Positions 12,890-60,506 of a stretch of 64,000 nt of DNA are shown here, piece after piece. Under the pieces are notes generated by a model. It was given only the letters and a program-made list of their open reading frames with translations. It ran no database searches and was not told where the DNA came from. The first letter of the stretch is position 1. Each line of letters begins with the position of its first letter. The position numbers were made by a program, and so were the translations under genes. Source of the DNA: Shigella phage Sf24; sequence record MF327008; one strand, given 5' to 3'.

Positions 12890-12893
12890 CAAT

Positions 12894-12923
12894 GGGGACC
12901 TTTCGGTCCCCATATTTTTATTT
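12894..12923 (+). terminator. rho-independent terminator after gene 54
   Basis: GGGGACC-UUUC-GGUCCCC hairpin followed by AUAUUUUUAUUU. Confidence 0.7.
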
Positions 12924-13208: not shown

Positions 13209-13239
13209 TTTGTGTTCCTCATGTTATGTCAGTAAGATT

Positions 13240-13269
13240 ACTATAACACAACACGAGGGACTTGTAAAC
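13240..13269 (-). promoter_or_regulatory. early promoter (GTTTAC -35, TATAGT -10)
   Basis: Minus strand GTTTAC-N14-GTG-T-TATAGT; part of a 53 bp repeat also found at 28499-28551. Confidence 0.65.
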
Positions 13270-15326
13270 TACATTTTGAACTTTTTAGACATTCCGTTGA
13301 TGTTAACCAAAGAAGCTAAGATTTGAGAAACTTCGTTTTCCTCTTCTTTTGATTCTTCTACAAGGAATTGATTAAATCCAGCCATTGGACGAACTTCACC
13401 AGTTTCCATCAAATGATCGCCATCATATACTGATTCTTCTAATTGCTCAGAAGGAGGAACGATTGTGCCTTCGATTAGATACTTATTATAAGCAGTTTCT
13501 TTCATCATGTACGTGCTCACTTTATTAATCTTCAGTAAAATTCCACGTGGTAGAATAACTTCAGCTTCTGATGGAAATCCTGATAAATGACCTGGAACGA
13601 TAACTTTGATTCGCTCAGCCCCTTTAATTACCATACCTACGCTAGTTTCAGCGTCTTCATTCGCATAAGCAGAGTGACTACCCATATGCATTAAATCTTC
13701 AGCATCAACTGAACCTTCTCCTTCGCCAGAAAATACTGCGCCGGAATCATCTAGAGCCATATAGTTTTTACCATGCTCACCGAAGATATTTGGTTTAAGC
13801 GATGTGGATACGAAGTTCTTGAAATAGAACATTTTATTTTCAATATTATGACGTAAAGTTTTAAAAGTAACTTCTTGTCCACGATAAAGCGTAGTTCCTG
13901 GAGGAAGAACTGAACCTTTAGCGAATGCAGAATCCATTGTCTCGATGTGTTTAATAGCTCGTTCCATGTATTCTTCACGGGTAGAATCTGGTTTACCCAA
14001 GAGGAACGAGTTCATTTCAACATATGAATCTGCACAATAATCTTCAATTACATCAGACTCAGCCTGAGTTAATCCTTTTGGAGTTACTTCGGTGCTTGCG
14101 TATTCATATGCCTGAGCAGCAGATTCATTAATCAATTTATAAATGCTATTCATGACAAATTGAATAATAGCTGTCTTTTCATCTGACGTAGCTTTAGAAC
14201 CTTTAACTAAATCATTGATAATTTTCTTAATAACATCAAAGCTATTAGAAATATTAATGTCAGCGAGATCGCTCAAAATTTTATCGGTTTTATAATCAAA
14301 AAATTCTTTATTCTTTAAATATTCTTGAGAACCTTGATATGTTATATCGCTCTGCAGTCTGATAGACGGATCACGTAAACGCGCATGGGCCAATGCAATA
14401 TGATTTCGGAAGCTTTCTAGTTCATAATCGTTAGATTTAAAACGAGAAGCACTTCTCATACCACCGATAGCTCCTTTGCTGAAGTTGGAACCAATCTGAA
14501 TAACACCAGAGTTCATTGGTCCTTCTGCTTTATATACAGGAACTTTAGATTCAAACTCTTGATATTTCTTGGCAGCGAAGCTATCACCCTGAAGTGAAGC
14601 ATCAACAGTAGAATATTGAGCTTGTGCTGCTAATCGACGACTAATTTTAGTTTTCTGAATAACAGCTTGATCCGTACGCTTATCATTTTCTAAAGCAATA
14701 GAAGCAGCAACTGCGACAGCTTTAGGAACAGCATTACCTGTTTTAACGTCTACATAAACATCACCAACCTTTGATTCAACTTTTGTGAATAACTCAGCTG
14801 AAATAGGAGGTACACCTGGAATGTCTTCTAAATTGGCATTTTTACGGTAAACCATAATATATGCGTACTTTTTATCATAGTCCCAGATTTCCTTTAAAAG
14901 AACATATCGGCCTGCTCCTTTAGTACGTACTAAACGGTCAGCAATAACTTGCATTTGACGAGCAGCGCCATTTGTTTTACTCTTTAGTACGCGGAATAAG
15001 CATGCATCAATTTTATACTGTTTCATTGTTTGAAGAGCAGTATCAAAAACAGCATTAATGGCGCCAATTGGATTTCCACCCAAGTTTTTAAGTTTAACTA
15101 ATGATAGTTTCTCATTGACACCTATCATTACGATATGCATCATTTTGTCGCCTGGCTTAACGTTTTTATTCGTATCACCGCCAGAGGTGTATGTACAAAA
15201 TCTAAATCCAGGAAGCACGCTTTCTTCACCGGCTTGAATAGCAAAAATTTGTGGTATTTTATGCTTAGGATTTAAGTTAACAACCGGCGCCGAAGCGCCG
15301 TCAAATAATTCTGTAATAAGTTCCAT
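13269..15326 (-). CDS. Alt-like ADP-ribosyltransferase paralog, 685 aa
   Basis: Shares N-terminus (MELITELFD...LNPK.KIPQIF) and domain order with the adjacent alt; R-S-E triad elements YRG, FVSTSL and SEAEVILPRG. Confidence 0.85.
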   Translation of the reverse strand: MELITELFDGASAPVVNLNPKHKIPQIFAIQAGEESVLPGFRFCTYTSGGDTNKNVKPGDKMMHIVMIGVNEKLSLVKLKNLGGNPIGAINAVFDTALQTMKQYKIDACLFRVLKSKTNGAARQMQVIADRLVRTKGAGRYVLLKEIWDYDKKYAYIMVYRKNANLEDIPGVPPISAELFTKVESKVGDVYVDVKTGNAVPKAVAVAASIALENDKRTDQAVIQKTKISRRLAAQAQYSTVDASLQGDSFAAKKYQEFESKVPVYKAEGPMNSGVIQIGSNFSKGAIGGMRSASRFKSNDYELESFRNHIALAHARLRDPSIRLQSDITYQGSQEYLKNKEFFDYKTDKILSDLADINISNSFDVIKKIINDLVKGSKATSDEKTAIIQFVMNSIYKLINESAAQAYEYASTEVTPKGLTQAESDVIEDYCADSYVEMNSFLLGKPDSTREEYMERAIKHIETMDSAFAKGSVLPPGTTLYRGQEVTFKTLRHNIENKMFYFKNFVSTSLKPNIFGEHGKNYMALDDSGAVFSGEGEGSVDAEDLMHMGSHSAYANEDAETSVGMVIKGAERIKVIVPGHLSGFPSEAEVILPRGILLKINKVSTYMMKETAYNKYLIEGTIVPPSEQLEESVYDGDHLMETGEVRPMAGFNQFLVEESKEEENEVSQILASLVNINGMSKKFKM

Positions 15327-15329
15327 GAT

Positions 15330-17426
15330 TTATCCTTGAACGAACTTGTAAGGCATGTTTGTAATATCTATGCAAGATGCAATAATTCCAAGAGATGATT
15401 CTACTTTTTGTTTAACATTTGATGAAACAAATGATGCAAAGTCAACTCTGTCTTCTATTTCAATATCACCTGTCATTGCAACTACTTCGCCGGTTTCCAT
15501 TAAATGGTCTCCATCATAGATTACCGATTCGGTGAGCTCTTCCGTGGTCATAACTTCAGCTTGAATGAGTTTTGTATTATTAGACGTGGTTCCGTCATTA
15601 TTAGAAGCATCAGTTATTTTATTAACTTTGACCATCAATCCGCGCGGTAGAATAACTTCAGCTTCTGTTGCTATTCCGAGACTTCCTGGATATACAACAT
15701 TAACTTTATGAGCTCCATCAATTGCCCATCCTATTTGAACTTTAACGTATTCAGGATTTTCTTTATACGCTCTTATTTCGTTTGGATTAATAGTTATTCC
15801 TTCTTCATTTTTATCAACTGTCAATTCATTACGAGCTTCTGGTTCTAAAAGACCAATACCAGCATGCGTAATTCCAAAACGTCCAAAAATGATAGGAGTT
15901 AAAGAAGTAGATACAAAATTTCTGAAATAGAATACTTTATTTTTAACTAATGCTTCGTATATAGGAGCAGTCATGCTTTGAGCACGATAAACTGTGATGC
16001 CTTCCGGTATGCGGTCACCATTTTCAAAAGCTGAATCTAAGTTATTTATAGCAGATTCAATTTCTTTTTCACTCATTACATCATATCGTTCTGGATTGTA
16101 ACGACCTAAAAGAAGATTATTGATGTCAGTATATCCTGAACCGCAATATTCTCTAATGCCACGCTTTTGTGATGGAGTATATTTAGAACCATCGCGGGCA
16201 ATAGTAATATCAATCATTGGACCAGCACCAATTCCAGAAAAACTGTAAATCATTCGTTTGAGGAATTTAGTTTTTGCTGCGTTCCAGGAATTTTTAGTTA
16301 TTTCTTCCCAGACTTCATCTGATTGTCCTTTACGATTTTTATTATGATTAGCAAGCCATTTATCTTTATAATCTTCAAAGAATTGATTTACAGCTGCTGC
16401 GTATTTCTCTAAACATTTTATTGAAGTAGTTGGTTCATTTTTAATTGCATTAAAAATTACTTCTTTAATTTTTTCTGAAACTTCACCGACTTGACTCATT
16501 GGAAAGAATTTATAATCATAGTGAAGTTCATCTGCCGTTCCTTCGGCAATAATTTTTGCTGCCTTAGTTTTAGAAGCTAATGAATTAATTCCAAGCTTCA
16601 TTTCTTCTGCTTCGGGAATTAAAGGTGCAGTAGCTGGTTTATTAAAATTAGCTGCTGTAGATTCATACTTCTGGAATAATTCACTTTCAAATCTAGAAGA
16701 TTCCAATGACTGACTTTGTGCAATTGCTCTACGGGAAATTTTAACTTTAACGATTACAGCTTGGTCAGAACGTTTATCGTTTTCTTGTGCAATAGATGCT
16801 GCAATTGCCTCATTTTTAGTTACTTGAGCTCCAGTATCTTTATTGATATAAACATCGCCAACTTTCGATTCAACTTTAGTAAAGAGCTCGGTACTAATTT
16901 CCGGAACTCCTGGAATGTCTTCTAGCGATACATTTTTGCGATGTATAAGAATATATGCATACTTTTTATCATAATCCCAGAGTTCCTTAAGAAGGACGTA
17001 TCTGCCACCTGAACGACTACGGATAAGTCTATCAGCAATAACTTGAATTTGTCGAGCTTGACCAGCGGTTTTAGACTTAAGAATACGAAGCATACAAGCA
17101 TCAATTTTATACTGACGCATTGTTTGCATTGCAACAGTAAAAACTGAATTGATATAATTAATTGGGCTTGGACCAAGACCTTTTAATTTAGCAATTGAAC
17201 CTTTAGCAGTTAATGTAAAAGGAACAATATGCATCATTTTATCGCCCATTTTTAAATCGCGATTAGTATCACCTCCAGATGTATAGGTACACAAACGAAA
17301 GCCTGGTTGTTCAATTGCGTCATCAACATGAACTGAAAAAATTTGCGGTATTTTCTTCTTTGGATTTAAGTTTGTAATCGGAAGAGTAGTATCTTCGTCA
17401 AATAATTCTGTAATGAGTTCCATCAT
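15330..17426 (-). CDS. alt: Alt ADP-ribosyltransferase (injected internal head protein)
   Basis: 698 aa; closest to remembered T4 Alt; ART elements VYRAQS, FVSTSL, TEAEVILPRG; late TATAAATA promoter upstream. Confidence 0.88.
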   Translation of the reverse strand: MMELITELFDEDTTLPITNLNPKKKIPQIFSVHVDDAIEQPGFRLCTYTSGGDTNRDLKMGDKMMHIVPFTLTAKGSIAKLKGLGPSPINYINSVFTVAMQTMRQYKIDACMLRILKSKTAGQARQIQVIADRLIRSRSGGRYVLLKELWDYDKKYAYILIHRKNVSLEDIPGVPEISTELFTKVESKVGDVYINKDTGAQVTKNEAIAASIAQENDKRSDQAVIVKVKISRRAIAQSQSLESSRFESELFQKYESTAANFNKPATAPLIPEAEEMKLGINSLASKTKAAKIIAEGTADELHYDYKFFPMSQVGEVSEKIKEVIFNAIKNEPTTSIKCLEKYAAAVNQFFEDYKDKWLANHNKNRKGQSDEVWEEITKNSWNAAKTKFLKRMIYSFSGIGAGPMIDITIARDGSKYTPSQKRGIREYCGSGYTDINNLLLGRYNPERYDVMSEKEIESAINNLDSAFENGDRIPEGITVYRAQSMTAPIYEALVKNKVFYFRNFVSTSLTPIIFGRFGITHAGIGLLEPEARNELTVDKNEEGITINPNEIRAYKENPEYVKVQIGWAIDGAHKVNVVYPGSLGIATEAEVILPRGLMVKVNKITDASNNDGTTSNNTKLIQAEVMTTEELTESVIYDGDHLMETGEVVAMTGDIEIEDRVDFASFVSSNVKQKVESSLGIIASCIDITNMPYKFVQG

Positions 17427-17447
17427 ATCCTCTCTAGTGTTTATTCT

Positions 17448-17455
17448 ATTTATAA
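17448..17455 (-). promoter_or_regulatory. late promoter TATAAATA for alt
   Basis: Reverse complement of tatttata, 22 bp upstream of the alt ATG. Confidence 0.6.
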
Positions 17456-17475
17456 AATTAAAGGCCCGAAGGCCT
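17451..17475 (-). terminator. hairpin terminator between the ligase operon and alt
   Basis: AGGCC-CGAA-GGCCU hairpin with A/T-rich tract on the minus strand. Confidence 0.45.
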
Positions 17476-17664
17476 TTAATAATCTATTGGTAAGAGAGTA
17501 CGATATATTTCAAACTTTGGACCTTTTTCATAGGCATCAAATGTTTCTGTGAATTTATTATAAGCATATGCATCTATAAATTCAATCATAATTTGTGATA
17601 CAGAAGTAGAAACATCTCCACCTTCTTTTTGAGCCACGACAATTGTTTCTAAGTAAGCTTTCAT
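17476..17664 (-). CDS. hypothetical protein, 62 aa
   Basis: ORF directly downstream of and overlapping the DNA ligase stop; hairpin at its 3' end. Confidence 0.5.
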   Translation of the reverse strand: MKAYLETIVVAQKEGGDVSTSVSQIMIEFIDAYAYNKFTETFDAYEKGPKFEIYRTLLPIDY

Positions 17665-19124
17665 AGACCAGTTACCTCATGAAAATCACCAAATACATCC
17701 TCGAATGTATTAGCTTTAGTTTTATCTTCACGTAAACGAATCGCAATCGGAAGAAATAATTTAACGTAATCGGTGCGGCCATCAGATTTTAACCAACCAT
17801 TGCATTCGCACTCTAGAATTTTTCCAATATAATAATTTTGGTTTTCCATAATGCGAGTACGGTCAAGTTCATGCGATTTTACACCGGCTTTATCTTTTAA
17901 GCCTGAACCAGCATTTACTTTAATTTTTCCACACTCTGATTCAAGAATAAATCCACCCGCTTTAGTAGGGTCTTTACGGTGAGGATAAATTCCTACAATT
18001 TTTAAATCAACATCAATTACTTCTTTAAATTTATAAAGATTTTTTGAACGAGCATTTTCCCATAATCCATCGATATTTTTGAGAATAATACCTTCAAGAC
18101 CTTGGTCAATATACTTTTTATAAATTACCTTAGCTTCATCTATGTTATTTACTACCTGGTTTTCAATTAAAATTACTTTATCATATCCTGATGTCATTTG
18201 TTCTAGTTTAGAAAAACGTACATCATATTTTAAACGAAACGCCGGAAGACCGTATATTTCTACCAACGGGACATAATCCCAAACCTGAAACTTCATGCAT
18301 TGAGCTTCTTTTTCAGAAATGGTTCCTTTTAAGGATTTATTGGCGATTCCATTAGAAGTAGTACGAGATTCCGCTACTTCGGCGAATTCTTTAGCTTTAC
18401 TAATTTCAGGATAAGCATCAAAAAGAAAATCTAGGCCTTCTGGTTCCTTTTTAACTTGCTCATGGTATACCAATTCGCCATCAATTAACACACCTTCTGG
18501 ATGAATCTGGCGGGCTTCAGCAGTCATTTTGATTAACTCTTCCTTAAGAAGATCTAATCCTAGATATTCATTACCAGCTCGTGATAAAAGACGAACATCA
18601 TCTAATTCATCGCCTCGGACTTCAGCAAAACACCGGGCTCCATCTGCTTTTAACTGCGCAAAGGCTGGAAACTTGATATTCTTACTAATGCCCTTTTCAT
18701 CATAAGAACTTGCCAGCATTTGAGGTTGTTCAGGAATTAAACCTGGCCAAACTTTGTTTGCAATAGATACTGAAGCACCGCATTCAAGGTCTCGCATCAT
18801 CACTCGACGCAAAACTTCAACATCATCCTTTTTACCATCAGTGATATATCCAGTTAATTCCTCAATTGCAGCATTTCCAGTCAATTTCCGAGTAGCTAAC
18901 GTGAATTCAATGAAATCAAGCATATCGGTAATGGTCAGCATTCCAAAACTCTGGGTAGCAATACCAGGTTTAGGCCATTTCTTGATATAATACTGTAACC
19001 CACGAGAATAAGTCAGACGATATACTCGTTTAAGCAATTCATTATCTTTATTCTTTTCAAGAATTGCTTGCTTCTGCTTAGTTGATCCAATAGATGCTAT
19101 TTCATTCAGAATTTTAAGAATCAT
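17661..19124 (-). CDS. 30: ATP-dependent DNA ligase gp30
   Basis: 487 aa, T4 ligase length; ligase-type lysine motif QLKADGARC. Confidence 0.92.
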   Translation of the reverse strand: MILKILNEIASIGSTKQKQAILEKNKDNELLKRVYRLTYSRGLQYYIKKWPKPGIATQSFGMLTITDMLDFIEFTLATRKLTGNAAIEELTGYITDGKKDDVEVLRRVMMRDLECGASVSIANKVWPGLIPEQPQMLASSYDEKGISKNIKFPAFAQLKADGARCFAEVRGDELDDVRLLSRAGNEYLGLDLLKEELIKMTAEARQIHPEGVLIDGELVYHEQVKKEPEGLDFLFDAYPEISKAKEFAEVAESRTTSNGIANKSLKGTISEKEAQCMKFQVWDYVPLVEIYGLPAFRLKYDVRFSKLEQMTSGYDKVILIENQVVNNIDEAKVIYKKYIDQGLEGIILKNIDGLWENARSKNLYKFKEVIDVDLKIVGIYPHRKDPTKAGGFILESECGKIKVNAGSGLKDKAGVKSHELDRTRIMENQNYYIGKILECECNGWLKSDGRTDYVKLFLPIAIRLREDKTKANTFEDVFGDFHEVTGL

Positions 19125-19390
19125 TGTTCATCCTTCAGAGTTTGATTTACAGCTCTATTATAAATCAATTCATCATTAAGCTCAGTTAAAGACCTATGAT
19201 ATGTAGTTCTAACTTTATTTCCTTGCATCCAGTGCTTGATATAAATGAAACCTTGCTCTACACATTTTTTAAAAATTCGTTCGTCTTTTTGAGCTCGGAA
19301 TTCTGGATTGCATCTAAAGAATTGATTTACGTGACCGTAATCACGCGTAGTATTACCTTCATTTTCATAAATAGTGTGAACGACAAACAT
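19121..19390 (-). CDS. hypothetical protein, 89 aa (30.1 position)
   Basis: ORF overlapping ligase start; gene order. Confidence 0.6.
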   Translation of the reverse strand: MFVVHTIYENEGNTTRDYGHVNQFFRCNPEFRAQKDERIFKKCVEQGFIYIKHWMQGNKVRTTYHRSLTELNDELIYNRAVNQTLKDEQ

Positions 19391-20229
19391 TAGAATGCTC
19401 CTTGGAAAATATTATCACCACAAGTAGGTCTATTATACAAATACTCTATGCCACCAGGTTTAATATAGTTCCATGTCTGAAACGGATGTGTCTGATATGG
19501 ATGATATAGATGATTATAAGGATTAAACCCAGGAGTTCTCCAGGTAGTGTTCCAACGAAAAGAATCATTTTTAATCATCTTTTCAATTACATCTTTTATA
19601 GCTTTTTCACTATCAAAACTTTCTTTATTTTCCTTCGGTGAAAAAAGTTTATTTTCTACATCATTCCATATATAAACTCGCTGCGCAGTTTTTGGAATAT
19701 TGTCACGCTCTCCTCGAGCCATCCAATAAACAGGAACATTTAATATTTCACTCGCATGATCGCAATGATGCGCGAGATCGTCAATATAACAAATTACGTT
19801 ATATTTCTCTTTTGCCTTTTTGAACAACTCTTCTTTTGAAGAATCATGACCACACATCATTACTTCCGAGAAGGCGCCAGGAAAAAGAGCATTCAAATTA
19901 AATTGACGATTCAACAGAGCGTCAATAGAATCACCCAATGCTGTAACAGCTACAAAATTATAATCTTCTTTTAGTTTGTTAATTACACACAGGGCATCTT
20001 TATATGGAGACAAGTAACGAATAAAATCTGATCGATTATATTTTTCAATTAACTTGACACCAAGTTCTTCATCACAATTAAAGAGTTTACCTGGAGAAAT
20101 AAATTTCTCATCTTGGATCATTTTTAAAATATGTTCTAACGGAAGATTATATTTCTGAGCAAAATAAGGAAGACCTGATTGCCAGCTTAAACAAACTCCA
20201 TCAATATCAGTTAAAATAGTAGGCTTCAT
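19390..20229 (-). CDS. HAD-superfamily hydrolase-like protein, 279 aa (30.2 position)
   Basis: N-terminal DxDG-type motif LTDIDGV typical of HAD phosphatases. Confidence 0.65.
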   Translation of the reverse strand: MKPTILTDIDGVCLSWQSGLPYFAQKYNLPLEHILKMIQDEKFISPGKLFNCDEELGVKLIEKYNRSDFIRYLSPYKDALCVINKLKEDYNFVAVTALGDSIDALLNRQFNLNALFPGAFSEVMMCGHDSSKEELFKKAKEKYNVICYIDDLAHHCDHASEILNVPVYWMARGERDNIPKTAQRVYIWNDVENKLFSPKENKESFDSEKAIKDVIEKMIKNDSFRWNTTWRTPGFNPYNHLYHPYQTHPFQTWNYIKPGGIEYLYNRPTCGDNIFQGAF

Positions 20230-20690
20230 AGAGAGTCTCTTAATAGGTTTAACACATCAATAAATTCAGCTTCGGTTAATATTGTATCATCTTTTGTTAG
20301 ACCACTAGCCATGCTGTGCTTCAAAACTTTTCCTTTCGAGGCTTGTAATGCATCGCGAAAGCCCCTGTTTTGGAACGCTGCTTCAAAATATGCATTTGTG
20401 TATAATTCTTTCCACGCTGGGGAGTATCTTGAAAACGGAACTCCAAGCCAAAAGAGGGTCCCACGGTCCTGAGCTCTAGCATAAGACCTTCCAGCTTGTT
20501 GGGCGGCAAGCCCGGATAACCCAAATATACGTCTTTGCTGTTCAACATTTTTCACCTTACATCCTTGGAGGAATCCTTCGAGACCTCCAAATTGGATACC
20601 ATCCATAACAAAAGGCCATTGGGCGAAATTACTTAATGCGCATGATGGCCATTTAAAATTGCTTCTAATCTCTAACTCAGACATTTTCAA
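20226..20690 (-). CDS. NADAR / YbiA-like (DUF1768) domain protein, 154 aa (30.3 position)
   Basis: Motifs SNFAQWPFVMDG and E-G-F-L-Q-G-C-K resemble the YbiA/NADAR signature as remembered; needs HMM confirmation. Confidence 0.55.
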   Translation of the reverse strand: MKMSELEIRSNFKWPSCALSNFAQWPFVMDGIQFGGLEGFLQGCKVKNVEQQRRIFGLSGLAAQQAGRSYARAQDRGTLFWLGVPFSRYSPAWKELYTNAYFEAAFQNRGFRDALQASKGKVLKHSMASGLTKDDTILTEAEFIDVLNLLRDSL

Positions 20691-21077: not shown

Positions 21078-21364
21078 TAGAACCTCATCTGAAAACCGTG
21101 CGATTTAACATTACCTCCGCCAATATCAGAAATGTTAATTTCGCGCGCAATTGAAGGGTCAATGTCAATTTCACGATTGAGTTTAGTGATAGCTAAAGTA
21201 TCGCGCCCATTTACAGTACGGAACTCTAAAGGACATACTACATTAACGTAGTTTTTAATCGATTCACTGGTAGGTTGCAAATGAACAGGAAGGTCTTTAG
21301 GCGCCTTTGAGAAAACCACTTCACAGAAATTTTTGCGGGTATCAAAATAAGTAGTCATAAACAT
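21077..21364 (-). CDS. hypothetical protein, 95 aa
   Basis: ORF coupled to neighbours. Confidence 0.55.
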   Translation of the reverse strand: MFMTTYFDTRKNFCEVVFSKAPKDLPVHLQPTSESIKNYVNVVCPLEFRTVNGRDTLAITKLNREIDIDPSIAREINISDIGGGNVKSHGFQMRF

Positions 21365-21405
21365 AGTATTTTCCTCAGTAAGGGGCCGAAGCCCCTCATT
21401 TTATT

Positions 21406-21771
21406 TTAAATATCAAATTCGTTAAGAACTACATCAAAGATTGCTTCAAGATGCTCAGGTTTAGCTCTGTTACTCAGAATATGACGAATCCAAGTTTTAA
21501 CCAGAAGCTTGCGATTAACGCCATTCCAGCAAGGATGAGTCCCTAAATCGCGTTGACGAAAATCATCATCCAAAGCGATTTTGAAGTTGGAACCTTCCAT
21601 TGTGATTGAAACCGTGATGCCATTTTCAAATCGCATATAAACGTAGTTAGGAGTCATATACTGTTCAATTTCGCATACTGATCCATTTTGATGTTTCCAA
21701 AGGCAAATAGTATCAATAGAACCTGCAATACCATTAGAAACATATTTACGTTCAAAGTTGATGTAGTTCAT
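21406..21771 (-). CDS. hypothetical protein, 121 aa
   Basis: ORF preceded by a promoter-like element embedded in a hairpin. Confidence 0.55.
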   Translation of the reverse strand: MNYINFERKYVSNGIAGSIDTICLWKHQNGSVCEIEQYMTPNYVYMRFENGITVSITMEGSNFKIALDDDFRQRDLGTHPCWNGVNRKLLVKTWIRHILSNRAKPEHLEAIFDVVLNEFDI

Positions 21772-21807
21772 TTTTATTCTCCGAGATGTTTAATTGCGGT
21801 ACAGGTA

Positions 21808-21837
21808 TATAATATCATATCCTGTACCAAAGTAAAC
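21808..21837 (-). promoter_or_regulatory. candidate early promoter embedded in a hairpin
   Basis: GTTTAC followed 17-18 bp later by TATTAT; flanked by inverted repeat ggtacagg / cctgtacc. Confidence 0.45.
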
Positions 21838-21839
21838 AA

Positions 21840-22172
21840 TTATTTTACTACTTTCCAGTGCTGCATGTCAAGTTTACCAACTTTTTTCATCTTCTCAATT
21901 AAGCGTTCTGCGCGTTGGCGAGCTGTAACATAATGCCATTCACCTAATTCATTTTGTTCAATTTTTCCAACGATTACTGTGTTCAATTCATAAATCCAAC
22001 CAGTAAAGAAATTATGAACTTGAATTGTAAAGGTGAAATCTGTTCCCATACCTTCTGTTGTTTCTACTTCAATAATATCACCTTCAACTGCCATTAAGAA
22101 CCACATAGTTTCATCATATTTACCGTTGAAGCATTTAGTTTTAACTGTAGCGTTCAGATTAATCGTTTTCAT
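21840..22172 (-). CDS. hypothetical protein, 110 aa
   Basis: ORF with an early-promoter motif at 22200-22229. Confidence 0.55.
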   Translation of the reverse strand: MKTINLNATVKTKCFNGKYDETMWFLMAVEGDIIEVETTEGMGTDFTFTIQVHNFFTGWIYELNTVIVGKIEQNELGEWHYVTARQRAERLIEKMKKVGKLDMQHWKVVK

Positions 22173-22199
22173 TTTATTCTCCTTTGTTTGTGTAAGATA

Positions 22200-22229
22200 A
22201 TACTATCACAAAGGAACCATACTGTAAAC
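22200..22229 (-). promoter_or_regulatory. early promoter
   Basis: Minus strand GTTTAC-N14-GTG-A-TAGTAT upstream of the 21840-22172 gene. Confidence 0.6.
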
Positions 22230-22248
22230 AACTTTGTGCAATCTTTGG

Positions 22249-22277
22249 AAAATAAAAAAGGACTCCCGAAGGAGTCC
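22249..22277 (-). terminator. rho-independent terminator
   Basis: GGACUCC-CGAA-GGAGUCC hairpin followed on the minus strand by UUUUUUAUUUU. Confidence 0.8.
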
Positions 22278-22282
22278 TCAAC

Positions 22283-22501
22283 TTATGCTTTCTGCTTACC
22301 AAAACGAGAAGCATCATCTCGAAGAACCGCACGTGCTCGGCGCATGATCTTCTCAACAGTTTGATTGATACGAGAGTTCGACCCACGCTTGTAACCAGCG
22401 CGTTTAGAATCACCAACTTTCTTTTCAACTGCTTTCTTTGCTTTAGCTTGTTTTGCCATTATAAATTCTCTTTTAAATGAAAATGCAGGACTTATTGGCA
22501 T
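22283..22501 (-). CDS. small Lys/Arg-rich protein; start may be the internal Met at 22459 (58 aa)
   Basis: ORF ending at a strong terminator hairpin (22260-22277); very basic composition. Confidence 0.5.
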   Translation of the reverse strand: MPISPAFSFKREFIMAKQAKAKKAVEKKVGDSKRAGYKRGSNSRINQTVEKIMRRARAVLRDDASRFGKQKA

Positions 22502-22704
22502 TGCCTGCGCAAGCCCTCAAGGGGAACATAGGTTTTTGAATATTTAACGACCAGGATAACCATAAACCCGTCATCATTCACATTCAAGAGGTACACCGTA
22601 AAACTGCCGGGGTCTTAAAACTATAATGATTCGCAAATCATTAATCAGACAGTTCGACGGCTCCTCGATTTTAGCTCACACTAAGGCAGTGAATCTCCAA
22701 TAAA

Positions 22705-22953
22705 TTACTTCAGTGTTACCACAAAGTGACGAACTGCTTTTCGTGCAGCAGAAGCCAGAGGCTTAGCATATTTAAGTTCATCTTTTTCCTGAAGCTCAGC
22801 AGCTAATGCAGTTTGAGCAGGATTCAGATGTTTGAAATAACGCAGGATTTCAAGAGCTTCGGCTTCAACATCAATAGATGCGCCATAGTTTTCGTGACCA
22901 TTATTCCATGCGTTTCGTTGCAGTTCAAGAGCGTGTTGTAATTGTTTAATCAT
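22705..22953 (-). CDS. rIII: rIII lysis-inhibition accessory protein
   Basis: 82 aa, T4 rIII length; sequence MIKQLQHALELQRNAWNNGHENYGASIDVEAEALEILRYF...; position before gene 31. Confidence 0.85.
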   Translation of the reverse strand: MIKQLQHALELQRNAWNNGHENYGASIDVEAEALEILRYFKHLNPAQTALAAELQEKDELKYAKPLASAARKAVRHFVVTLK

Positions 22954-23079
22954 TTAAAAATTCTCGTTAGAGATTAAAACTCGGTAGTCACGTTCTTCTG
23001 AATTTCATCTTCTTTCGACAGATCTCTCAGTTGTAGACTACCACATAGAATTGAAACTCAATTCATATTATTATTTATA

Positions 23080-23415
23080 TCACTTATAAAGACACGGAAT
23101 AGCTTTATAGTGACAGGTAACGAATTTTTGCTTAATTTCTTTTGGCTGCTTAAGACCCAGAGCTACAAAAGGATGCGGAACGTTTCGAATTTGACCAACT
23201 GGAAGAGAAGTCAAATCACCAACTTCACAGAAACCTTCAGGAACATCAGGACCAACAGAGTGAATTACACACAGTTCAGGAACTTCACCTTGAACACGTT
23301 TACCGATAATAAGTCCTGATTCTGTAACTTCTTCATCACCGGCTTGTGCAGGTTCAGAAACTAAAATAACATATTCACCGACAGCACGAATTGGTAGCTG
23401 TTGTACTTCAGACAT
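23080..23415 (-). CDS. 31: gp31 co-chaperonin (GroES analogue)
   Basis: 111 aa; sequence [30 protein letters not shown]... matches remembered T4 gp31. Confidence 0.92.
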
Positions 23416-23445
23416 CGTTTTTCCTTTTTGTTAACAGATGAATTA

Positions 23446-23470
23446 ATAATAACAAATAATTCTTAAAGCA
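23446..23470 (-). promoter_or_regulatory. candidate MotA-dependent middle promoter for gene 31
   Basis: Minus strand ATGCTTTA, 12 bp spacer, TATTAT. Confidence 0.45.
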
Positions 23471-23471
23471 T

Positions 23472-23780
23472 TTATTTACCAATAAATTGGAGTAAATGCT
23501 CAACTTTCATACCATTAACGGAAATCAATTTGTCAATAGAAAAACCTCGCCATGCACCAAGCTCAACATCAAATACTGGAATCATGTCAGTAGATTCTTT
23601 CCGAGTAGATTCAGTCAATTTACCAGTTTGCATGGTTGGCATAAAGTCTGCATCACGAGTACCTTTCATAGTACGAATAGTACCATCAGACTTTTCAAAA
23701 ACTACGTTTGAAATACCCATGGACAATTTAGTTTTCAAAATTTCACGAATTGCTACTTTTTGTTCAGTCGTCAATTTCAT
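23472..23780 (-). CDS. hypothetical protein, 102 aa (31.1 position)
   Basis: ORF; gene order. Confidence 0.55.
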   Translation of the reverse strand: MKLTTEQKVAIREILKTKLSMGISNVVFEKSDGTIRTMKGTRDADFMPTMQTGKLTESTRKESTDMIPVFDVELGAWRGFSIDKLISVNGMKVEHLLQFIGK

Positions 23781-24017
23781 TTATTTACCTATTACAGTTT
23801 TAATATGAGTTGTTCCACGTTCTTTAAGAGTGGAAAGCAACTTTTGGCATTTTTCTAAATCAGATTTCCAACTATACGGCCTATCAATACAAACCCATTC
23901 TGACTTATAATACTGTTTCCATTTAGAGAAAAAATACTTCTTATACTCTACAGCAAATGAAATGTTCTCGTTAGAATAAGAACTAATTGCTGTGAGCTGT
24001 ACCAAACGAAATTTCAT
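23781..24017 (-). CDS. hypothetical protein, 78 aa (31.2 position)
   Basis: ORF coupled to cd. Confidence 0.5.
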   Translation of the reverse strand: MKFRLVQLTAISSYSNENISFAVEYKKYFFSKWKQYYKSEWVCIDRPYSWKSDLEKCQKLLSTLKERGTTHIKTVIGK

Positions 24018-24598
24018 TATTCACCACAGAATTCGTTGATATTTTCCCAGTTTAACTTATTCAAGTTTTTCTTAGGAACATTAAACACTTCAATACCTGC
24101 ATTTCGCAGAATATCATCCCAGCCAGGTTTATTCTTATCATATGTTTCGCAATAAACCAGTTTTTTAATTCCAGATTGAGCTATGGCTTTTGCACAATCC
24201 GGACAAGGAGAAAGTGTTACATACATAGTAGCACCTTCAATTGAAGAACCGTTTCGTGCAGCAAACAAAATTGCATTTAGTTCAGCATGAATTTCATTTT
24301 TAGACGACCATTCAGAGTGAGCGCTACGATGTTCTTTCGCCAAGACAAAACGATCAGTTGAACCAAACGATACACATTCAGGCTTATGACCTTGAATGAT
24401 AGTATGTTTAGGTTTATTCAACAACCAACCTTGCTCAGCAGCATAATCACAGCAGTTCACACCACCAGCAGGTGAACCATTATATCCGGTAGAAATAATA
24501 CGTCCATTCTTTTCAATTACTGCTCCTACTTTCCAGGAGCAACATTTTGATTCTTGTGATACTAAATATGCAATTTGAAGTACTGTACTCGCTTTCAT
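24017..24598 (-). CDS. cd: dCMP deaminase
   Basis: 193 aa; zinc-binding deaminase motifs HAE and PCxxC. Confidence 0.92.
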   Translation of the reverse strand: MKASTVLQIAYLVSQESKCCSWKVGAVIEKNGRIISTGYNGSPAGGVNCCDYAAEQGWLLNKPKHTIIQGHKPECVSFGSTDRFVLAKEHRSAHSEWSSKNEIHAELNAILFAARNGSSIEGATMYVTLSPCPDCAKAIAQSGIKKLVYCETYDKNKPGWDDILRNAGIEVFNVPKKNLNKLNWENINEFCGE

Positions 24599-24933
24599 TT
24601 CATAATCACCAGATAAGCAGATTTAGCAGTTTCAACACGATAAATTTCGTGACGAAGTTTAGTTATACTTTTAATAACAGAACTAATTATATTCTGCCCA
24701 TCTTTAAAGCGGTTTTTCTTATCAATAAAAATTGCACCAGCCATCTTTTTGTGAAGCTCAACTGGATACTTCGTCACAATAATAGCATCATACACAGAAG
24801 GATGAATACTATTCACTAGAGTGTCATTCATTAAAGTTATTCTAATGAACTGTGCTGTGTCAGAGTCAAGCGCTCTATGATCGCCAGTATCATTTTCAAG
24901 ACAATTATCAATTATATCAGTTAAATTCATCAT
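24595..24933 (-). CDS. hypothetical protein, 112 aa (cd.1)
   Basis: ORF coupled to cd. Confidence 0.55.
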   Translation of the reverse strand: MMNLTDIIDNCLENDTGDHRALDSDTAQFIRITLMNDTLVNSIHPSVYDAIIVTKYPVELHKKMAGAIFIDKKNRFKDGQNIISSVIKSITKLRHEIYRVETAKSAYLVIMK

Positions 24934-25166
24934 AGTACGCCATACACCCTTTGTGCTTCAACTAATCCATCAAAATCCAATTTGAGATGTGTTATTTGGT
25001 CACCATCACCTGGATTCACAATTACTAATACTGAACGAGGAGTTTCGGTAATAACACGAACCGATGTTTCTGGAAATCGTTCAGAAACCTTATTTACCAA
25101 TTCCTGAGCAAATAGTTTAACTTTTTCTTGGAATTCTTTAACAGTAATTGGTTTTTCACTTAGCAT
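24930..25166 (-). CDS. hypothetical protein, 78 aa (cd.2)
   Basis: ORF with early-promoter motif upstream. Confidence 0.55.
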   Translation of the reverse strand: MLSEKPITVKEFQEKVKLFAQELVNKVSERFPETSVRVITETPRSVLVIVNPGDGDQITHLKLDFDGLVEAQRVYGVL

Positions 25167-25196
25167 TTTGTTTTCCTCATTTGTTTTGGTAGAGCT

Positions 25197-25226
25197 ATAA
25201 TATCACAACTCTACCAAAAAGTAAAC
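25197..25226 (-). promoter_or_regulatory. early promoter overlapping a hairpin
   Basis: Minus strand GTTTAC-N14-GTG-A-TATTAT; inverted repeat ggtagag / ctctacc spans the -10. Confidence 0.55.
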
Positions 25227-25228
25227 TA

Positions 25229-25504
25229 TTAAATTGCCTTGAATTCTGATGTCTGTGATTCAAAGCGAATATCGCCTTTGATGACTAGCTCAGCATCAAG
25301 ACCAAATACGACAATGATATGCGCGGAACCCGGATACAGCGTAATTGCAATAGAATCCACCTGGTCTGGAAGCAAAGTGTTCAATACATGAGTCACTTGA
25401 GCATGAATTCGAAGCTCGGCTGCGTTATCAAGCTTTTCAAACATATTATTAGCGATAATTTGACTAAACACTACTTCTACGATTTTAGAATAAGTCGGAA
25501 ACAT
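25229..25504 (-). CDS. hypothetical protein, 91 aa (cd.3)
   Basis: ORF. Confidence 0.55.
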   Translation of the reverse strand: MFPTYSKIVEVVFSQIIANNMFEKLDNAAELRIHAQVTHVLNTLLPDQVDSIAITLYPGSAHIIVVFGLDAELVIKGDIRFESQTSEFKAI

Positions 25505-25506
25505 AT

Positions 25507-25707
25507 TTACCTCGCATAATTTTCTTCAAGCCAATCAATAACATCCAACGCATTATCAAAAGTTGAACCATCTACTCTGTCTTCTGTTTCATAATCAAGA
25601 ACATCTAAGCCTACTCTTCCGTCAACAATAGGCCATAGACAGAATAGGTATTTCTTTTCTTTTTCAATTTTATCACAAAGACGATAAATCTTTTCTATGT
25701 TATTCAT
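25507..25707 (-). CDS. hypothetical protein, 66 aa (cd.4)
   Basis: ORF. Confidence 0.5.
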   Translation of the reverse strand: MNNIEKIYRLCDKIEKEKKYLFCLWPIVDGRVGLDVLDYETEDRVDGSTFDNALDVIDWLEENYAR

Positions 25708-25896
25708 AAGTTTTCCATGGTAAAGGCAGTTTAGTTTTCTTTACTGTTAGTTCAACATCAGGATTCTTTTCTCTCAATTTAAGACATTCCTCCCAAGCTC
25801 TGATTTCACTAGTGAATACACAAAATTGCCCATTACTAGTACCAACTAAACCACTATTTACAATAACAATAGACCAAGTTTCATGATGCCACGCCA

Positions 25897-25897
<1 letters not shown>
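25700..25897 (-). CDS. hypothetical protein, 65 aa (cd.5)
   Basis: ORF overlapping pseT stop. Confidence 0.5.
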
Positions 25898-27122
<1,225 letters not shown>

Positions 27123-27125
27123 TTA

Positions 27126-27356
27126 TTATTTCTCAACCAATGATTGAATATAATCATGCAGGTCTTTAGATGCTTTACCCCACTTATTTTGGTATTCATT
27201 TTTAAGATTAGCACGTGATTGAGCTAATAAAACATCATTAGTTGGAGGTAAAGATTCTAATCGTTGAATCTGGCGTCCATAAATCATTGCAGCCATCTCG
27301 GATTCATAAATCAATCCTTTGAGATGTTCAAATTGATGCCATGAAATCATTTGCAT
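27126..27356 (-). CDS. hypothetical protein, 76 aa
   Basis: ORF. Confidence 0.5.
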   Translation of the reverse strand: MQMISWHQFEHLKGLIYESEMAAMIYGRQIQRLESLPPTNDVLLAQSRANLKNEYQNKWGKASKDLHDYIQSLVEK

Positions 27357-27646
27357 TTATCCTCTTTTAACTCTTGGCGATAATAACATATCATAGTTTT
27401 CTGATCATGTACATATCGTTTTACATCATTAAGCCAAATACGAAATTCCTGGGAATCTTCGAATGGCATACCGACCCAAGCTTTACCATCAATAACTTTA
27501 ACTTGCCAGGATAGTTTAGCTTCATCGTATGACTTTATTTGTACTGGCCAATTAGGATGAACTGTTTCTTTCTTTACTTCTAGAGGCTTTGTCGAACAAC
27601 CAACTAGAAGACCAATAGATAATATTACTGCTGATAGTTTAATCAT
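27347..27646 (-). CDS. predicted lipoprotein, 99 aa
   Basis: N-terminal signal peptide with lipobox LLVGC. Confidence 0.55.
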   Translation of the reverse strand: MIKLSAVILSIGLLVGCSTKPLEVKKETVHPNWPVQIKSYDEAKLSWQVKVIDGKAWVGMPFEDSQEFRIWLNDVKRYVHDQKTMICYYRQELKEDKCK

Positions 27647-27996
27647 TTAGAAAGGTCCTGGATGTCTTCTGCGAACTTGTTGAAGGAGTTGTTGATTTGT
27701 TTTTCAACCAATCCTGGCTTATGAGCCACCACATCCGCCTTCTTTGCGTCTTTGCGCAGTTTTTCATTTTCACGCTCAATAGCAGCAATTGCCTCACGAT
27801 TTTTATTATTCATCGCATCAATATAATTATACTGAATTCGCAAATTATTTAATGCTAAAGCGTTTTCATTGGCCGTTTTTGTAATTTCAGTAACTGATGT
27901 TTCTAATCTTTCTACCTTATTTTTTAAAATAATAGATGTTCCGCCAAATGCTATTACAAGTAATAGCAATCCAGCTGTAAAATTACTTACATGCAT
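27643..27996 (-). CDS. membrane-anchored coiled-coil protein, 117 aa
   Basis: N-terminal hydrophobic helix followed by charged heptad-like sequence. Confidence 0.5.
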   Translation of the reverse strand: MHVSNFTAGLLLLVIAFGGTSIILKNKVERLETSVTEITKTANENALALNNLRIQYNYIDAMNNKNREAIAAIERENEKLRKDAKKADVVAHKPGLVEKQINNSFNKFAEDIQDLSK

Positions 27997-28493
27997 AAAG
28001 TTTTAATAACCTCTATAATATCGTCTTGAGAAAGACCGTTAATTAAAATATGATGTTCAGCTGGAGATTTAGAAATTTTAAAGCATGCCTCAACATCTTC
28101 TGCCATATCCGATGCACTACGATTTGGATTACTAATCCCAAGGCGGTGTTTTCCCGTCAAAGGATTAACGATGATATAGCATTTGCAGCTATTGATATGA
28201 ACATTGGGTTGAGTCTGATTAATGAACACTTCACAATCATACTTAGCGAGTTGATTTTCTAAAAAGACTTTCATCTCTTCAACCGCATCAGGAAGCATGT
28301 CACGGGCTTGCTCAAGACGACGATTTCGATATTCTTTAATGGTCGTTTTCCGCTTGACTTGCTTAGCTAAATCTTTCTTAAGATCAGTGATATATCCAAC
28401 TCGACGATTTCCTTTGAATACAGAAATCCCATCTGTAGTATCACCGTATGCTTCAACGACCATTTCAGTAGTAATAAGCTGCAAATCCATCAT
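27987..28493 (-). CDS. alc: Alc transcription terminator for cytosine-containing DNA
   Basis: 168 aa (T4 Alc 167 aa); position between the pseT.x genes and rnlA; early-promoter repeat upstream. Confidence 0.85.
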   Translation of the reverse strand: MMDLQLITTEMVVEAYGDTTDGISVFKGNRRVGYITDLKKDLAKQVKRKTTIKEYRNRRLEQARDMLPDAVEEMKVFLENQLAKYDCEVFINQTQPNVHINSCKCYIIVNPLTGKHRLGISNPNRSASDMAEDVEACFKISKSPAEHHILINGLSQDDIIEVIKTLCM

Positions 28494-28521
28494 AAAGTCC
28501 TCATGTTATGTCAGTAAGACT

Positions 28522-28551
28522 ACTATAACACAACACGAGGGACTTGTAAAC
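28522..28551 (-). promoter_or_regulatory. early promoter for alc
   Basis: Minus strand GTTTAC-N14-GTG-T-TATAGT; near-identical to the element at 13240-13269. Confidence 0.65.
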
Positions 28552-28554
28552 AGC

Positions 28555-30142
<1,588 letters not shown>

Positions 30143-60497: not shown

Positions 60498-60506
60498 AAT
60501 TTTTCC

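Follow-up and report, generated by a model that had tools for sequence, protein, structure and literature searches.

T4-type phages carry promoter-early stem-loop (PeSL) cassettes (Arbiol et al. 2010, PMC2839356; Comeau et al. 2014, PMC4122927), in which a strong early promoter of the sigma-70-like type (in PST/T4, TTTACW-N17-TAYWAT) is combined with a stem-loop situated between the -35 and -10 elements or overlapping the -10, with G-T pairs noted in the stems (PMC2839356). PeSLs recur within a genome and have been linked to cassette exchange; they were described mainly in hyperplastic regions adjoining ORFans, and the published function of their stem-loop is transcription termination or attenuation, translation not being discussed. 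A promoter inside a hairpin is also known from the T4-type late genes e, soc, 49, I-TevI/II/III, segB and Aeh1 mobE (PMC3014915, PMC2988022). In these, the Shine-Dalgarno sequence (SD) and/or the AUG is sequestered in long read-through transcripts, while transcripts from the gene's own promoter, which lies inside the 5'-arm region, are translated. All of these genes are late, with a nested late promoter, TATAAATA, and are silenced on early transcripts.

We analyzed a 64-kb stretch of DNA from Shigella phage Sf24 (the window), in which a 54-nt cassette is present twice on the minus strand, at 13216-13269 (copy A, upstream of alt.-3) and at 28498-28551 (copy B, upstream of alc in the rnlA-alc intergenic region). 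The copies are identical at 53 of 54 positions and read GTTTACA-AGTCCCTCGTGTTGTGT-TATAGT-A[A/G]TCTTACTGACATAAC-ATGAGGA; the sole mismatch (13238/28520, A versus G on the minus strand) falls inside the hairpin loop described below. The original prediction of a near-identical 53-bp repeat with one difference was right about the pair and the single mismatch and one base short in length, the last A of the GAGGA SD having been left outside. Comparing the window against itself gave exactly two copies, of 54 rather than 53 nt. When either half of the element was searched for with up to 3 mismatches, exactly two matches were found in the window, against 0.00 expected from 100 shuffles. Homology ends sharply on both sides of the 54 nt, and the pair stands out from other early-promoter-like families within the window, which are only 60-80% alike.

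Each copy precedes a gene on the minus strand. Copy A serves alt.-3 (12918-13208), whose 96-aa product is 100% identical to T4 Alt.-3, and copy B serves alc (27987-28493), an inhibitor of host transcription with two in-frame ATGs, at 28493 and 28490, the second of which is used in the T4 annotation. Both consensus scan and gene positions agree with the view, put forward before, that each copy is an early-type sigma-70 promoter with a short leader and a GAGGA SD, located before the 96-aa ORF and alc. In the scan, each copy has TTTACA-17-TATAGT, a TG ahead of the -10 and a score of 10 of 12 matches. The -35 hexamer TTTACA lies at 13263-13268 in copy A (GTTTACA when 13269 is included) and at 28545-28550 in copy B, and the extended -10, TGT followed by TATAGT, at 13240-13248 (at the top of the predicted hairpin) and 28522-28530. 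From sigma-70 geometry, transcription is predicted to start at 13233 in copy A, an A that is the 7th nucleotide after the -10, and at 28515 in copy B. Both copies have the sequence features of a T4-type early sigma-70 promoter (Pe), i.e., a -35 (G)TTTACA, a 17-nt spacer, TGn and a -10 TAnnnT. They resemble the T4 Pe 'uber' UP/-35/TGn/-10 promoters (Hinton 2010, PMC2988021) in the GTTTACA -35, the 17-nt spacer, TGn and TATAGT, and further in the A/T-rich upstream DNA and the early downstream genes. However, promoter recognition leaves unexplained the near-identity of the 17-nt spacer and 17-nt leader, and their complementarity to each other.

This complementarity had escaped the original prediction, which had the promoter parts right and missed the pairing. 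By fold prediction, the promoter spacer of each copy is complementary to the leader and SD. In copy A, the 5' arm CCUCGUGUUGUGUU (13245-13258) is promoter spacer with the anti-SD CCUC, and the 3' arm GACAUAACAUGAGG (13217-13230) includes most of the SD (GAGGA, 13216-13220); in copy B, the arms are at 28527-28540, again promoter spacer with anti-SD, and 28499-28512, again with most of the SD (GAGGA, 28498-28502). For both copies, 71-nt and 121-nt minus-strand RNAs are predicted to form a hairpin of 14 bp plus 4 bp (18 bp) in which the SD is paired, with free energies of -23 and -26.2 kcal/mol for the 71-nt RNAs (z = -4.6 to -4.9; 0 of 200 shuffles as stable). The GAGG of the SD is predicted to be paired in transcripts coming from upstream. 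Of the -10, only the first base falls within the 14-nt 5' arm of the main stem, which is otherwise upstream of it, and the predicted promoter RNA lacks this arm; the leader from the predicted-start region is unstructured (z about 0). We consider that pairing of the spacer with the leader and SD would best explain why spacer and leader are conserved beyond the promoter hexamers.

Opening the ribosome-binding site (RBS) in read-through RNA is predicted to cost 20.6 kcal/mol for alc and 18.1 for alt.-3, compared with 1.7-10.4 for the region's other 28 gene starts. RNA started at the promoter needs 4.7 kcal/mol for alc and 2.1 for alt.-3, values that are robust to a shift of the start by 2 nt either way. 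With the same measure, the experimentally validated hairpin of T4 gene e gave 16.1 versus 0.7-4.7. The pairing probability of the SD was set aside in favor of opening energy, as it was misleading, reaching 0.96 for alt.-3's own transcript through a weak 5-bp helix. Given a leader of only 22-25 nt, coverage of the SD is almost a geometric consequence of building the hairpin from the whole spacer. At two other promoters of the window (25226 and 21837) a hairpin covers the -10 and stops short of the SD.

We propose that each copy is a PeSL-type composite, in which a strong sigma-70 early promoter would be nested in an RNA hairpin, the 5' arm being the -35/-10 spacer with its anti-SD CCUC and the 3' arm nucleotides 4-17 of the leader with the SD. 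RNA entering from rnlA into alc, or from the alt-like gene into alt.-3, would carry both arms, fold and hide the RBS, and these genes would be translated poorly or not at all from it; RNA from the nested promoter would start past the -10, without the whole 5' arm, and its RBS would be open. Since the RBS would be hidden only in read-through RNA, production of Alc and Alt.-3 would depend on their own early promoter and be shielded from middle and late read-through. We infer the transcription start, hairpin formation in vivo and translational silencing from this geometry and the predicted folds, and regard it as fairly probable that a nested-promoter hairpin cassette gates translation of alc and alt.-3, and that the alc cassette was copied to alt.-3 in the Tequatrovirus ancestor. 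If correct, this would offer a simple cis explanation for a strictly early Alc, a host-shutoff factor, and for the small Alt.-3: both would be kept early even though their genes lie directly downstream of middle- and late-transcribed genes with no terminator between. It would also mean that, in engineering alc or alt.-3, changes made in the spacer of the promoter may affect how read-through RNA is translated.

The copies have the layout of a PeSL unit: an upstream stop codon comes 0-4 nt ahead of GTTTACA, and the predicted start is followed within 25 nt by the SD and ATG. The 18-bp hairpin (z about -4.7) encloses the -10, as in the subclass 'overlapping the -10 box'. The cassette occurs in two copies per genome, and cassettes differ among genera at alt.-3 and, in NHEP10, at alc. 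Unlike PeSLs of hyperplastic regions, the alc site is syntenic over many genera. The published role of the stem-loop suggests another reading, in which the hairpin is the terminator or attenuator half of a PeSL that stops or lowers transcription from rnlA or alt, the nested promoter restarts it, and covering of the SD is a by-product. The subclasses with a stem-loop between -35 and -10 or overlapping the -10 were defined by Arbiol et al. 2010 (PMC2839356), and a stem-loop of another phage, RB49, lowered downstream lacZ as much as the rrnB T1 terminator in a transcriptional fusion (PMC2839356); the window and other genera also have hairpins that cover the -10 but not the SD. Here, in contrast, there is no T-run after either copy (the tails are GAGGAACACAAAAUG and GAGGACUUUAUGAUG), neither copy has the form of an intrinsic terminator (a G+C-rich stem-loop with a U-run after it), a terminator scan flagged neither copy, and the 3' arm is SD; in about 10 lineages the stem is closed at its base by exactly the SD and its complement. 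We judge termination or attenuation as the main role to be unlikely, though the stem-loop may attenuate transcription without a T-run, and the two readings are not mutually exclusive. The cassette type itself has already been described; the idea that it may confine translation to RNA from the gene's own early promoter is new, and, if true, would give the PeSL stem-loop a second, testable function.

Occlusion of the RBS would work as in the e/soc/49/I-TevI class, with which the element shares a predicted sequestration of the SD in read-through RNA and a promoter inside the hairpin, and the predicted energetics are comparable to those of gene e (18-21 versus 16 kcal/mol). Nevertheless, it would not be a member of that class as described, because an early sigma-70 promoter is nested here and early genes follow it; the class is defined by a late promoter and a late gene, and the RNAs silenced here would be upstream read-through, including middle and late RNA, a reversal of the order in time. 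If true, the textbook T4 mechanism of a promoter inside an RBS-hiding hairpin would extend from late to early genes. A wider version holds that alc across many Straboviridae genera, and alt.-3 in Tequatrovirus by way of a copied cassette, are under an early-promoter-in-hairpin translational insulator with the timing of e/soc/49/I-TevI reversed, and that a sizeable subclass of PeSL stem-loops (including one at 22180-22229 of the window) are RBS occluders and not terminators; to this we give a little less than an even chance.

Two further roles were set aside for the leader and the stem. Cleavage by RegB was discarded, as GGAG is absent from the leader. For translational coupling, the upstream stops are 11-17 nt before the first paired base, a distance at which a ribosome that terminates there could probably not open the stem.

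The genes upstream of both copies are potential sources of read-through RNA. The rnlA gene (RNA ligase 1, gene 63; 28555-29715, minus strand) lies upstream of copy B, and its TAA stop is 4 nt before GTTTACA. Upstream of copy A is an alt-like ADP-ribosyltransferase gene of 685 aa (an ORF at 13269-15326, minus strand), whose TAG stop (13269-13271) overlaps the G of GTTTACA. T4 has alt.-1/alt.-2 remnants where the window has this full second alt-like gene adjoining copy A. According to published omics, T4 alc and alt.-3 have early RNA and early protein; among the co-linear upstream genes, alt has middle RNA and late protein, alt.-1/-2 have middle RNA, and rnlA has early RNA and late protein. T4 Alt.-3 is dispensable, and alt.-3 has been studied recently with regard to escape from the CmdTAC defence system. 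The terminator scan found no terminator-like site between upstream gene and cassette at either copy. About 24 nt upstream of the first alt-like gene, the late-promoter motif TATAAATA (17447-17454, minus strand) is a likely source of late transcripts running through to alt.-3, as a motif match whose count across the window is no higher than chance; no minus-strand terminator-like site was found between it and alt.-3. A bidirectional terminator-like hairpin flagged by the scan between gene 54 and alt.-3 (12892-12913, both strands) ends the alt.-3 transcription unit.

We compared the cassettes at alc across genera. In 10 lineages (Tequatro-, Gelderland-, Karam-, Jiaoda-, Roskilde-, Braga-, Dhaka-, Kanagawa-, Winkler- and Biquartavirus) opening the RBS costs 9.5-21.5 kcal/mol in read-through RNA versus 0.8-4.7 in promoter-initiated RNA, and the spacer and leader sequences vary yet stay complementary. 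When halves were swapped among 12 lineages, cognate pairs had a mean of -18.9 kcal/mol versus -10.8 for chimeras; the cognate mean was reached by 0 of 20,000 permutations, and the cognate partner was the best in 9 of 12. In a gapless alignment of four genera, 92.6% of cells pair and 4 of 17 pairs are changed on both sides, with a covariation score of 0.284 versus 0.140 for shuffled alignments (0 of 500 as high) and only 40-52% pairing for slid partners. MAFFT with RNAalifold predicted no structure for nine alc cassettes; because the anti-SD register differs between genera, this result was not counted against the structure and the swap test was used. A covariance model built from four genera matched the Tequatrovirus, Jiaodavirus and Dhakavirus hairpins, and its alignment was left out of the pair counts because registers were inconsistent and antisense strands matched too. 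The opening contrast at alc is absent in five lineages (NHEP10, Tegunavirus, Providencia PSTCR6, Acj9 and Aes012). In Tegunavirus and PSTCR6 the hairpin encloses the -10 and ends short of the SD; because such hairpins exist there and at 25226 and 21837, those over the -10 may be selected for something besides hiding the SD.

The antisense matches bear on a possible role of the inverted repeat in DNA, or in either strand, as a protein-binding palindrome over the -10, a cruciform or a preferred recombination site for exchanging cassettes. Stems outside Tequatrovirus are almost purely Watson-Crick, their antisense folds about as well (sense -20.2 versus antisense -18.6 kcal/mol, p = 0.27), and crossovers in PeSL recombination were mapped within or adjoining stem-loops (PMC2839356). 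The Tequatrovirus stem, however, contains three G.U pairs, with a sense strand 6-9 kcal/mol more stable than the antisense, its natural variants move among G.U, A-U and C-G in ways that are neutral only in sense-strand RNA, and no candidate binding protein is known, which makes a DNA-level role highly unlikely. The covarying, interrupted 18-bp stem at a gene junction could also be an element of RNA processing or stability, i.e., an RNase III-type site splitting rnlA or alt from alc or alt.-3 mRNA, or a protective 3'-end barrier, since such stems are typical exonuclease barriers. Neither complementarity to the SD nor an enclosed promoter is required for such an element. Rfam 15 gave no match at gathering score, only chance-level matches of 13-21 bits versus gathering scores of 50-140; the sole one overlapping the element was MIR6140 (20 bits versus 140). 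We assign this possibility a very small probability.

The same two loci are occupied by both copies in about 498 GenBank Tequatrovirus records, T4 included, and the repeat is not a recent or unstable feature. The interval between them holds DNA ligase (gene 30), the gene 31 co-chaperonin, cd, pseT and both alt-like genes, all of which a deletion would take out; since genes 30 and 31 are regarded as essential in T4, such a deletion should not yield viable phage. That the pair is merely a duplicated strong promoter with incidental self-complementarity, mainly of interest, as the original prediction stressed, as a substrate for deletion or duplication, is scarcely probable. Recombination between directly repeated, nearly identical 54-bp stretches is possible in T4-type phages, mini-circles formed between PeSLs are on record (PMC2839356), and the variants G16A and T27C are common to both copies within L197 and L198, a hint of occasional copy-to-copy exchange. 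Against this stand the interval's gene content, the fixed positions, the fold z of about -4.7 and the lineage-specific complementarity.

Within Tequatrovirus, stem variants change G.U to A-U, C-G to U.G and A-U to G.U, with one full compensatory path, C15-G50 to U.G and then U-A. Of eight within-genus stem changes, five keep the pair (P = 0.009-0.16 depending on transition bias), which is suggestive only. These within-genus variant statistics are weak; a metagenome scan gave at least five Tequatrovirus copies among the matches listed.

As to the origin of the alt.-3 copy, the Tequatrovirus cassette looks like those at alc in sister genera (..TTGTGT / TTAC..AAC..ATGAGGA), and an alc-type cassette is present at alt.-3 only in Tequatrovirus, on which ground alc is the probable source of the alt.-3 cassette. 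In six other genera the spacer at alt.-3 belongs to a different family. The alt.-3 promoters of Mosig-, Marfa-, Moon-, Kagamiyama- and Gaprivervirus-like phages have only their ends in common with the Tequatrovirus cassette and carry a CAC-NGGAN-GTG palindrome in the spacer. The alc cassette would be ancestral, with its inner ~37 nt copied onto the alt.-3 promoter in the Tequatrovirus ancestor, probably by gene conversion between short ends already common to both promoters (GTTTACAAG and CATGAGGA); both direction and mechanism are deduced from the cassette sequences. This would be a concrete case of regulatory-cassette copying, from alc to alt.-3, at the base of a genus. The NHEP10 lineage carries the other, alt.-3-type cassette at alc, and this swap, together with the difference at alt.-3 between Tequatrovirus and the six genera, supports the promoter-cassette shuffling envisaged in the original prediction and fits the PeSL concept.

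The window is a segment of a Tequatrovirus (T4-like) genome, with Citrobacter phage PhiZZ23 being 97.6% identical over 4 kb. The predicted two-locus repeat was recovered at 13216-13269 (copy A) and 28498-28551 (copy B), which are identical at 53 of 54 positions; its real size is 54 nt, one base more than the original prediction had stated. When each half of the element was searched with up to 3 mismatches, exactly two matches were found in the window compared to 0 expected, and the homology between the copies ends sharply on either side. The remaining early-promoter-like repeat families of the window are just 60-80% alike. On the minus strand the element reads GTTTACA / AGTCCCTCGTGTTGTGT / TATAGT / A[A/G]TCTTACTGACATAAC / ATGAGGA, i.e., the -35, a 17-nt spacer with a terminal TGT, the -10, a 17-nt leader segment and the Shine-Dalgarno (SD). 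A consensus scan read the -35, spacer and -10 in both copies, in agreement with the proposed promoter, leader and SD before a 96-aa ORF and before alc. The former corresponds to T4 Alt.-3 (12918-13208, minus) and lies 3' of copy A, and alc (27987-28493, minus) lies 3' of copy B. The alc start has two adjacent in-frame ATGs (28488-28493); the mechanical ORF list begins at the first, and the second is favoured by SD spacing (7 nt) and used in the T4 annotation.

Across GenBank, the 54-mer was found at 995 places in 498 phage records, essentially two per genome, and all matches belonged to Tequatrovirus-type phages (92.6-100% identity). T4 itself carries both copies, 5' of alt.-3 and of alc, which differ from each other at one position, other than the position that differs between the Sf24 copies. 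Since these Tequatrovirus-type genomes, T4 included, carry the pair, it is a long-standing feature that is fixed in the genus rather than a rearrangement peculiar to Sf24. The pair is a genus-wide early-promoter cassette of the promoter-early stem-loop (PeSL) type: like PeSLs, the Sf24 element combines an early promoter with a stem-loop overlapping the -10, extends from stop codon to SD/ATG, and is repeated. PeSLs, including those of PST/T4, reach from the stop codon to the SD and ATG, are repeated and mediate cassette shuffling, and their stem-loop has been read as a terminator or attenuator, with translation undiscussed (Arbiol et al. 2010, PMC2839356; Comeau et al. 2014, PMC4122927). In Sf24 no T-run follows the cassette hairpins, which are thus not terminator-like, and a terminator scan of the window revealed no terminator-like site between the upstream gene and the cassette at either copy.

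A promoter alone leaves the conservation of spacer and leader unexplained; the spacer, however, proves complementary to the leader. The predicted fold of the minus-strand RNA has a 14-bp stem, a 2-nt bulge, a 4-bp apical stem and an AUCU loop, in which the 5' arm is the promoter spacer (CCUCGUGUUGUGUU), the 3' arm (GACAUAACAUGAGG) includes the SD, and the -10 lies at the top. The 71-nt RNAs gave fold energies of -23 and -26.2 kcal/mol, with z = -4.6 to -4.9 for 71- and 121-nt RNAs and none of 200 shuffles folding equally well. The predicted transcription starts, 13233 and 28515 (the 7th nt past the -10; about 123057 and 136300 in T4), fall downstream of the main 14-nt 5' arm, the pairing partner of the SD, and promoter-initiated RNA would therefore be unable to form the hairpin; this RNA was predicted to be unstructured (z about 0). 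On read-through RNA, which enters the cassette from the upstream gene, opening the ribosome-binding site (RBS; from -16 to +4 relative to the start codon) would cost 20.6 kcal/mol for alc and 18.1 kcal/mol for alt.-3, in contrast to 4.7 and 2.1 kcal/mol on RNA from the nested promoter, values unaffected by a 2-nt shift of the start in either direction. The remaining 28 gene starts of the same 16.7-kb region cost 1.7-10.4 kcal/mol. The same measure gave 16.1 vs 0.7-4.7 kcal/mol for T4 gene e, whose RBS hairpin lowers translation about 100-fold on long transcripts.

To assess whether the hairpin is under selection, the rnlA-alc intergenic region was obtained from 16 further lineages, in which rnlA-alc synteny and an early promoter are conserved. 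Complementarity between the spacer and the SD-containing leader recurs across the Tevenvirinae genera with different sequences, examples of spacer/leader pairs being TCTCCATTTGGTT/AACCAAATGGAGA in Karamvirus, TCCTCATTTCGTT/AACGAAATGAGGA in Winklervirus, TCCTCATCAG/CTGATGAGGA in Jiaodavirus and AACCTCTCATTTTT/AAAATGAGAGGTT in Bragavirus. Ten lineages showed opening costs at alc of 9.5-21.5 kcal/mol for read-through vs 0.8-4.7 kcal/mol for promoter-initiated RNA. In an alignment-free swap test, each 5' half was joined to each 3' half across 12 lineages; cognate pairs averaged -18.9 and chimeras -10.8 kcal/mol, permuting the partners 20,000 times never reached the cognate mean, and for nine of the 12 lineages the cognate partner ranked first. 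A gapless four-genus alignment had 92.6% of cells paired, both partners altered in 4 of 17 pairs and a covariation score of 0.284 vs 0.140 in shuffles (0/500), and sliding the partners reduced pairing to just 40-52%. Stem variants within Tequatrovirus include G.U to A-U (in both copies), C-G to U.G and A-U to G.U, and one phage completes the path C-G to U.G to U-A, its SD also becoming AAGGA; three variants break a pair. Pairing is kept in five of eight changes (P = 0.009-0.16), which as a sign of selection is only suggestive. Overall, the predicted hiding of the RBS on read-through RNA is well supported, both computationally and comparatively.

Copy A follows a full-length alt-like gene, with the G of GTTTACA forming part of its TAG stop, and copy B follows rnlA, which stops 4 nt before the cassette. 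A late-promoter motif match, TATAAATA, is located roughly 24 nt 5' of the first alt-like gene. Published time-course omics of T4 classify alc and alt.-3 as early RNA and early protein, and, among the genes co-linear with and upstream of them, alt and denA as middle RNA and late protein, alt.-1/-2 as middle RNA, and rnlA as early RNA and late protein. This timing is what insulation of alc and alt.-3 from read-through would produce, although it is not proof. Alt.-3 is uncharacterised and dispensable, and mutants with a C-terminal extension escape the CmdTAC defence system. The window encodes two full-length tandem Alt-like ADP-ribosyltransferases (13269-15326 and about 15330-17423); at the same place T4 has one alt and the truncated remnants alt.-1 and alt.-2, noted in its record as an old partial duplication of alt.

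The proposed mechanism matches the one known from hairpins of T4 late genes (e, soc, 49, I-TevI and others). According to reviews (PMC3014915, PMC2988022), every known case is a late gene whose nested promoter is also late, and alc goes unmentioned; at alc and alt.-3, in contrast, the nested promoter is early. In the openly accessible literature, no report that the RBS of alc or alt.-3 is occluded was found, and no Rfam family matches the element. The nesting of an early promoter in a covarying hairpin that putatively hides the RBS on read-through RNA is what distinguishes the cassette, and this property is apparently new to the literature.

The contrast between read-through and promoter-initiated RNA is absent at alc in NHEP10, Tegunavirus TG1, Providencia PSTCR6, Acj9 and Aes012, and in TG1 and PSTCR6 a strong hairpin around the -10 ends 5-6 nt before the SD. 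Within the window, a hairpin formed by spacer and leader covers the -10 at five of 10 early-promoter-like sites, with the SD inside it at three (alc, alt.-3 and the 22229 promoter) and outside at two (25226 and 21837). The hairpins without the SD (TG1, PSTCR6, 25226, 21837) make -10 hairpins a broader class, for which SD hiding may be neither the sole nor the primary role. Stems outside Tequatrovirus are nearly all Watson-Crick and show no significant difference between sense and antisense stability (p = 0.27); the case for strand specificity therefore depends on the Tequatrovirus stem, with its three G.U pairs and its variants.

The third hairpin-nested early promoter (22180-22229, minus; GTTTACA-N17-TAGTAT) has a spacer, UCCUUUGU, that pairs with the SD region ACAAAGGA of ORF 21840-22172, and its hairpin was independently recovered by an alc-derived covariance model. 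The two sites with the SD outside a strong stem lie at about 25179-25226 (minus; UUUUGGUAGAG../..CUCUACCAAAA) and about 21790-21837 (minus; GGUACAGG../..CCUGUACC), a design shared by the alc sites of Tegunavirus and Providencia phage PSTCR6. A small palindrome, CAC-(A/T)GGA(A/C/T)-GTG, recurs in the -35/-10 spacer of several early promoters: at about 59396 (minus) in the window, before alt.-3 in five other genera and before alc in NHEP10 (comparison sequences L191-L193, L196, L007-L010 and L059). Two Gaprivervirus-like IMG/VR contigs (L008, 263-427; L009, 350-514) have, directly 5' of full alc, a short ORF whose product is similar to the N-terminal ~55 residues of Alc. This ORF has a promoter of its own within a terminator hairpin, and an anti-SD (GGTTCC) lies in the stretch that separates the -10 from the predicted start.

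The repeat had also been proposed as a substrate for deletion or duplication and as a sign of promoter-cassette shuffling. The interval between the copies contains two alt-like genes, gene 30 (DNA ligase), rIII, gene 31, cd, pseT and alc, some of which are treated as essential in the T4 literature. A deletion between the copies would therefore remove these genes, and with the arrangement fixed genus-wide, an active source of viable deletions is not supported. Shuffling as an evolutionary process is supported, as cassette types differ by genus at alt.-3 and in NHEP10 at alc. The Tequatrovirus cassette is similar to those found at alc in sister genera, with ..TTGTGT preceding the -10 and TTAC..AAC..ATGAGGA following it. 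Promoters of the same geometry at alt.-3 in RB69 (Mosigvirus), VAC36 (Marfavirus), CF1 (Moonvirus), EcS1 (Kagamiyamavirus) and Gaprivervirus-like contigs belong to another spacer family with a small CAC-NGGAN-GTG palindrome, hide the RBS weakly (5-8 kcal/mol) and share only the ends GTTTACAAG and (A)CATGAGGA with the Tequatrovirus element. The simplest reading is that in the Tequatrovirus ancestor the alt.-3 cassette was replaced by the inner ~37 nt of the alc cassette, probably through conversion between these micro-homologies; NHEP10 is the reverse case, its alc being preceded by a cassette of the palindrome type. Most genomes have private substitutions that are not the same in the two copies. 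G16A is present in both copies of the divergent phages vB_ECOLIGBLB0003 and teqhal, and T27C in both copies of the former, a pattern suggestive of either occasional conversion between the copies or parallel selection that favours a stronger A-U pair.

Other repeats in the window include an exact 265-nt tandem duplication (60090-60354 and 60355-60619, 100% identical), each unit of which contains a terminator-like hairpin, GGGCCGAAGCCCC (60246-60275 and 60511-60540), with related hairpins at 858, 21376 and 60741. Several imperfect direct-repeat families (46-68 nt, 61-82% alike) occupy 43025-44099, apparently within one coding region, which is suggestive of a repeat-containing structural gene.
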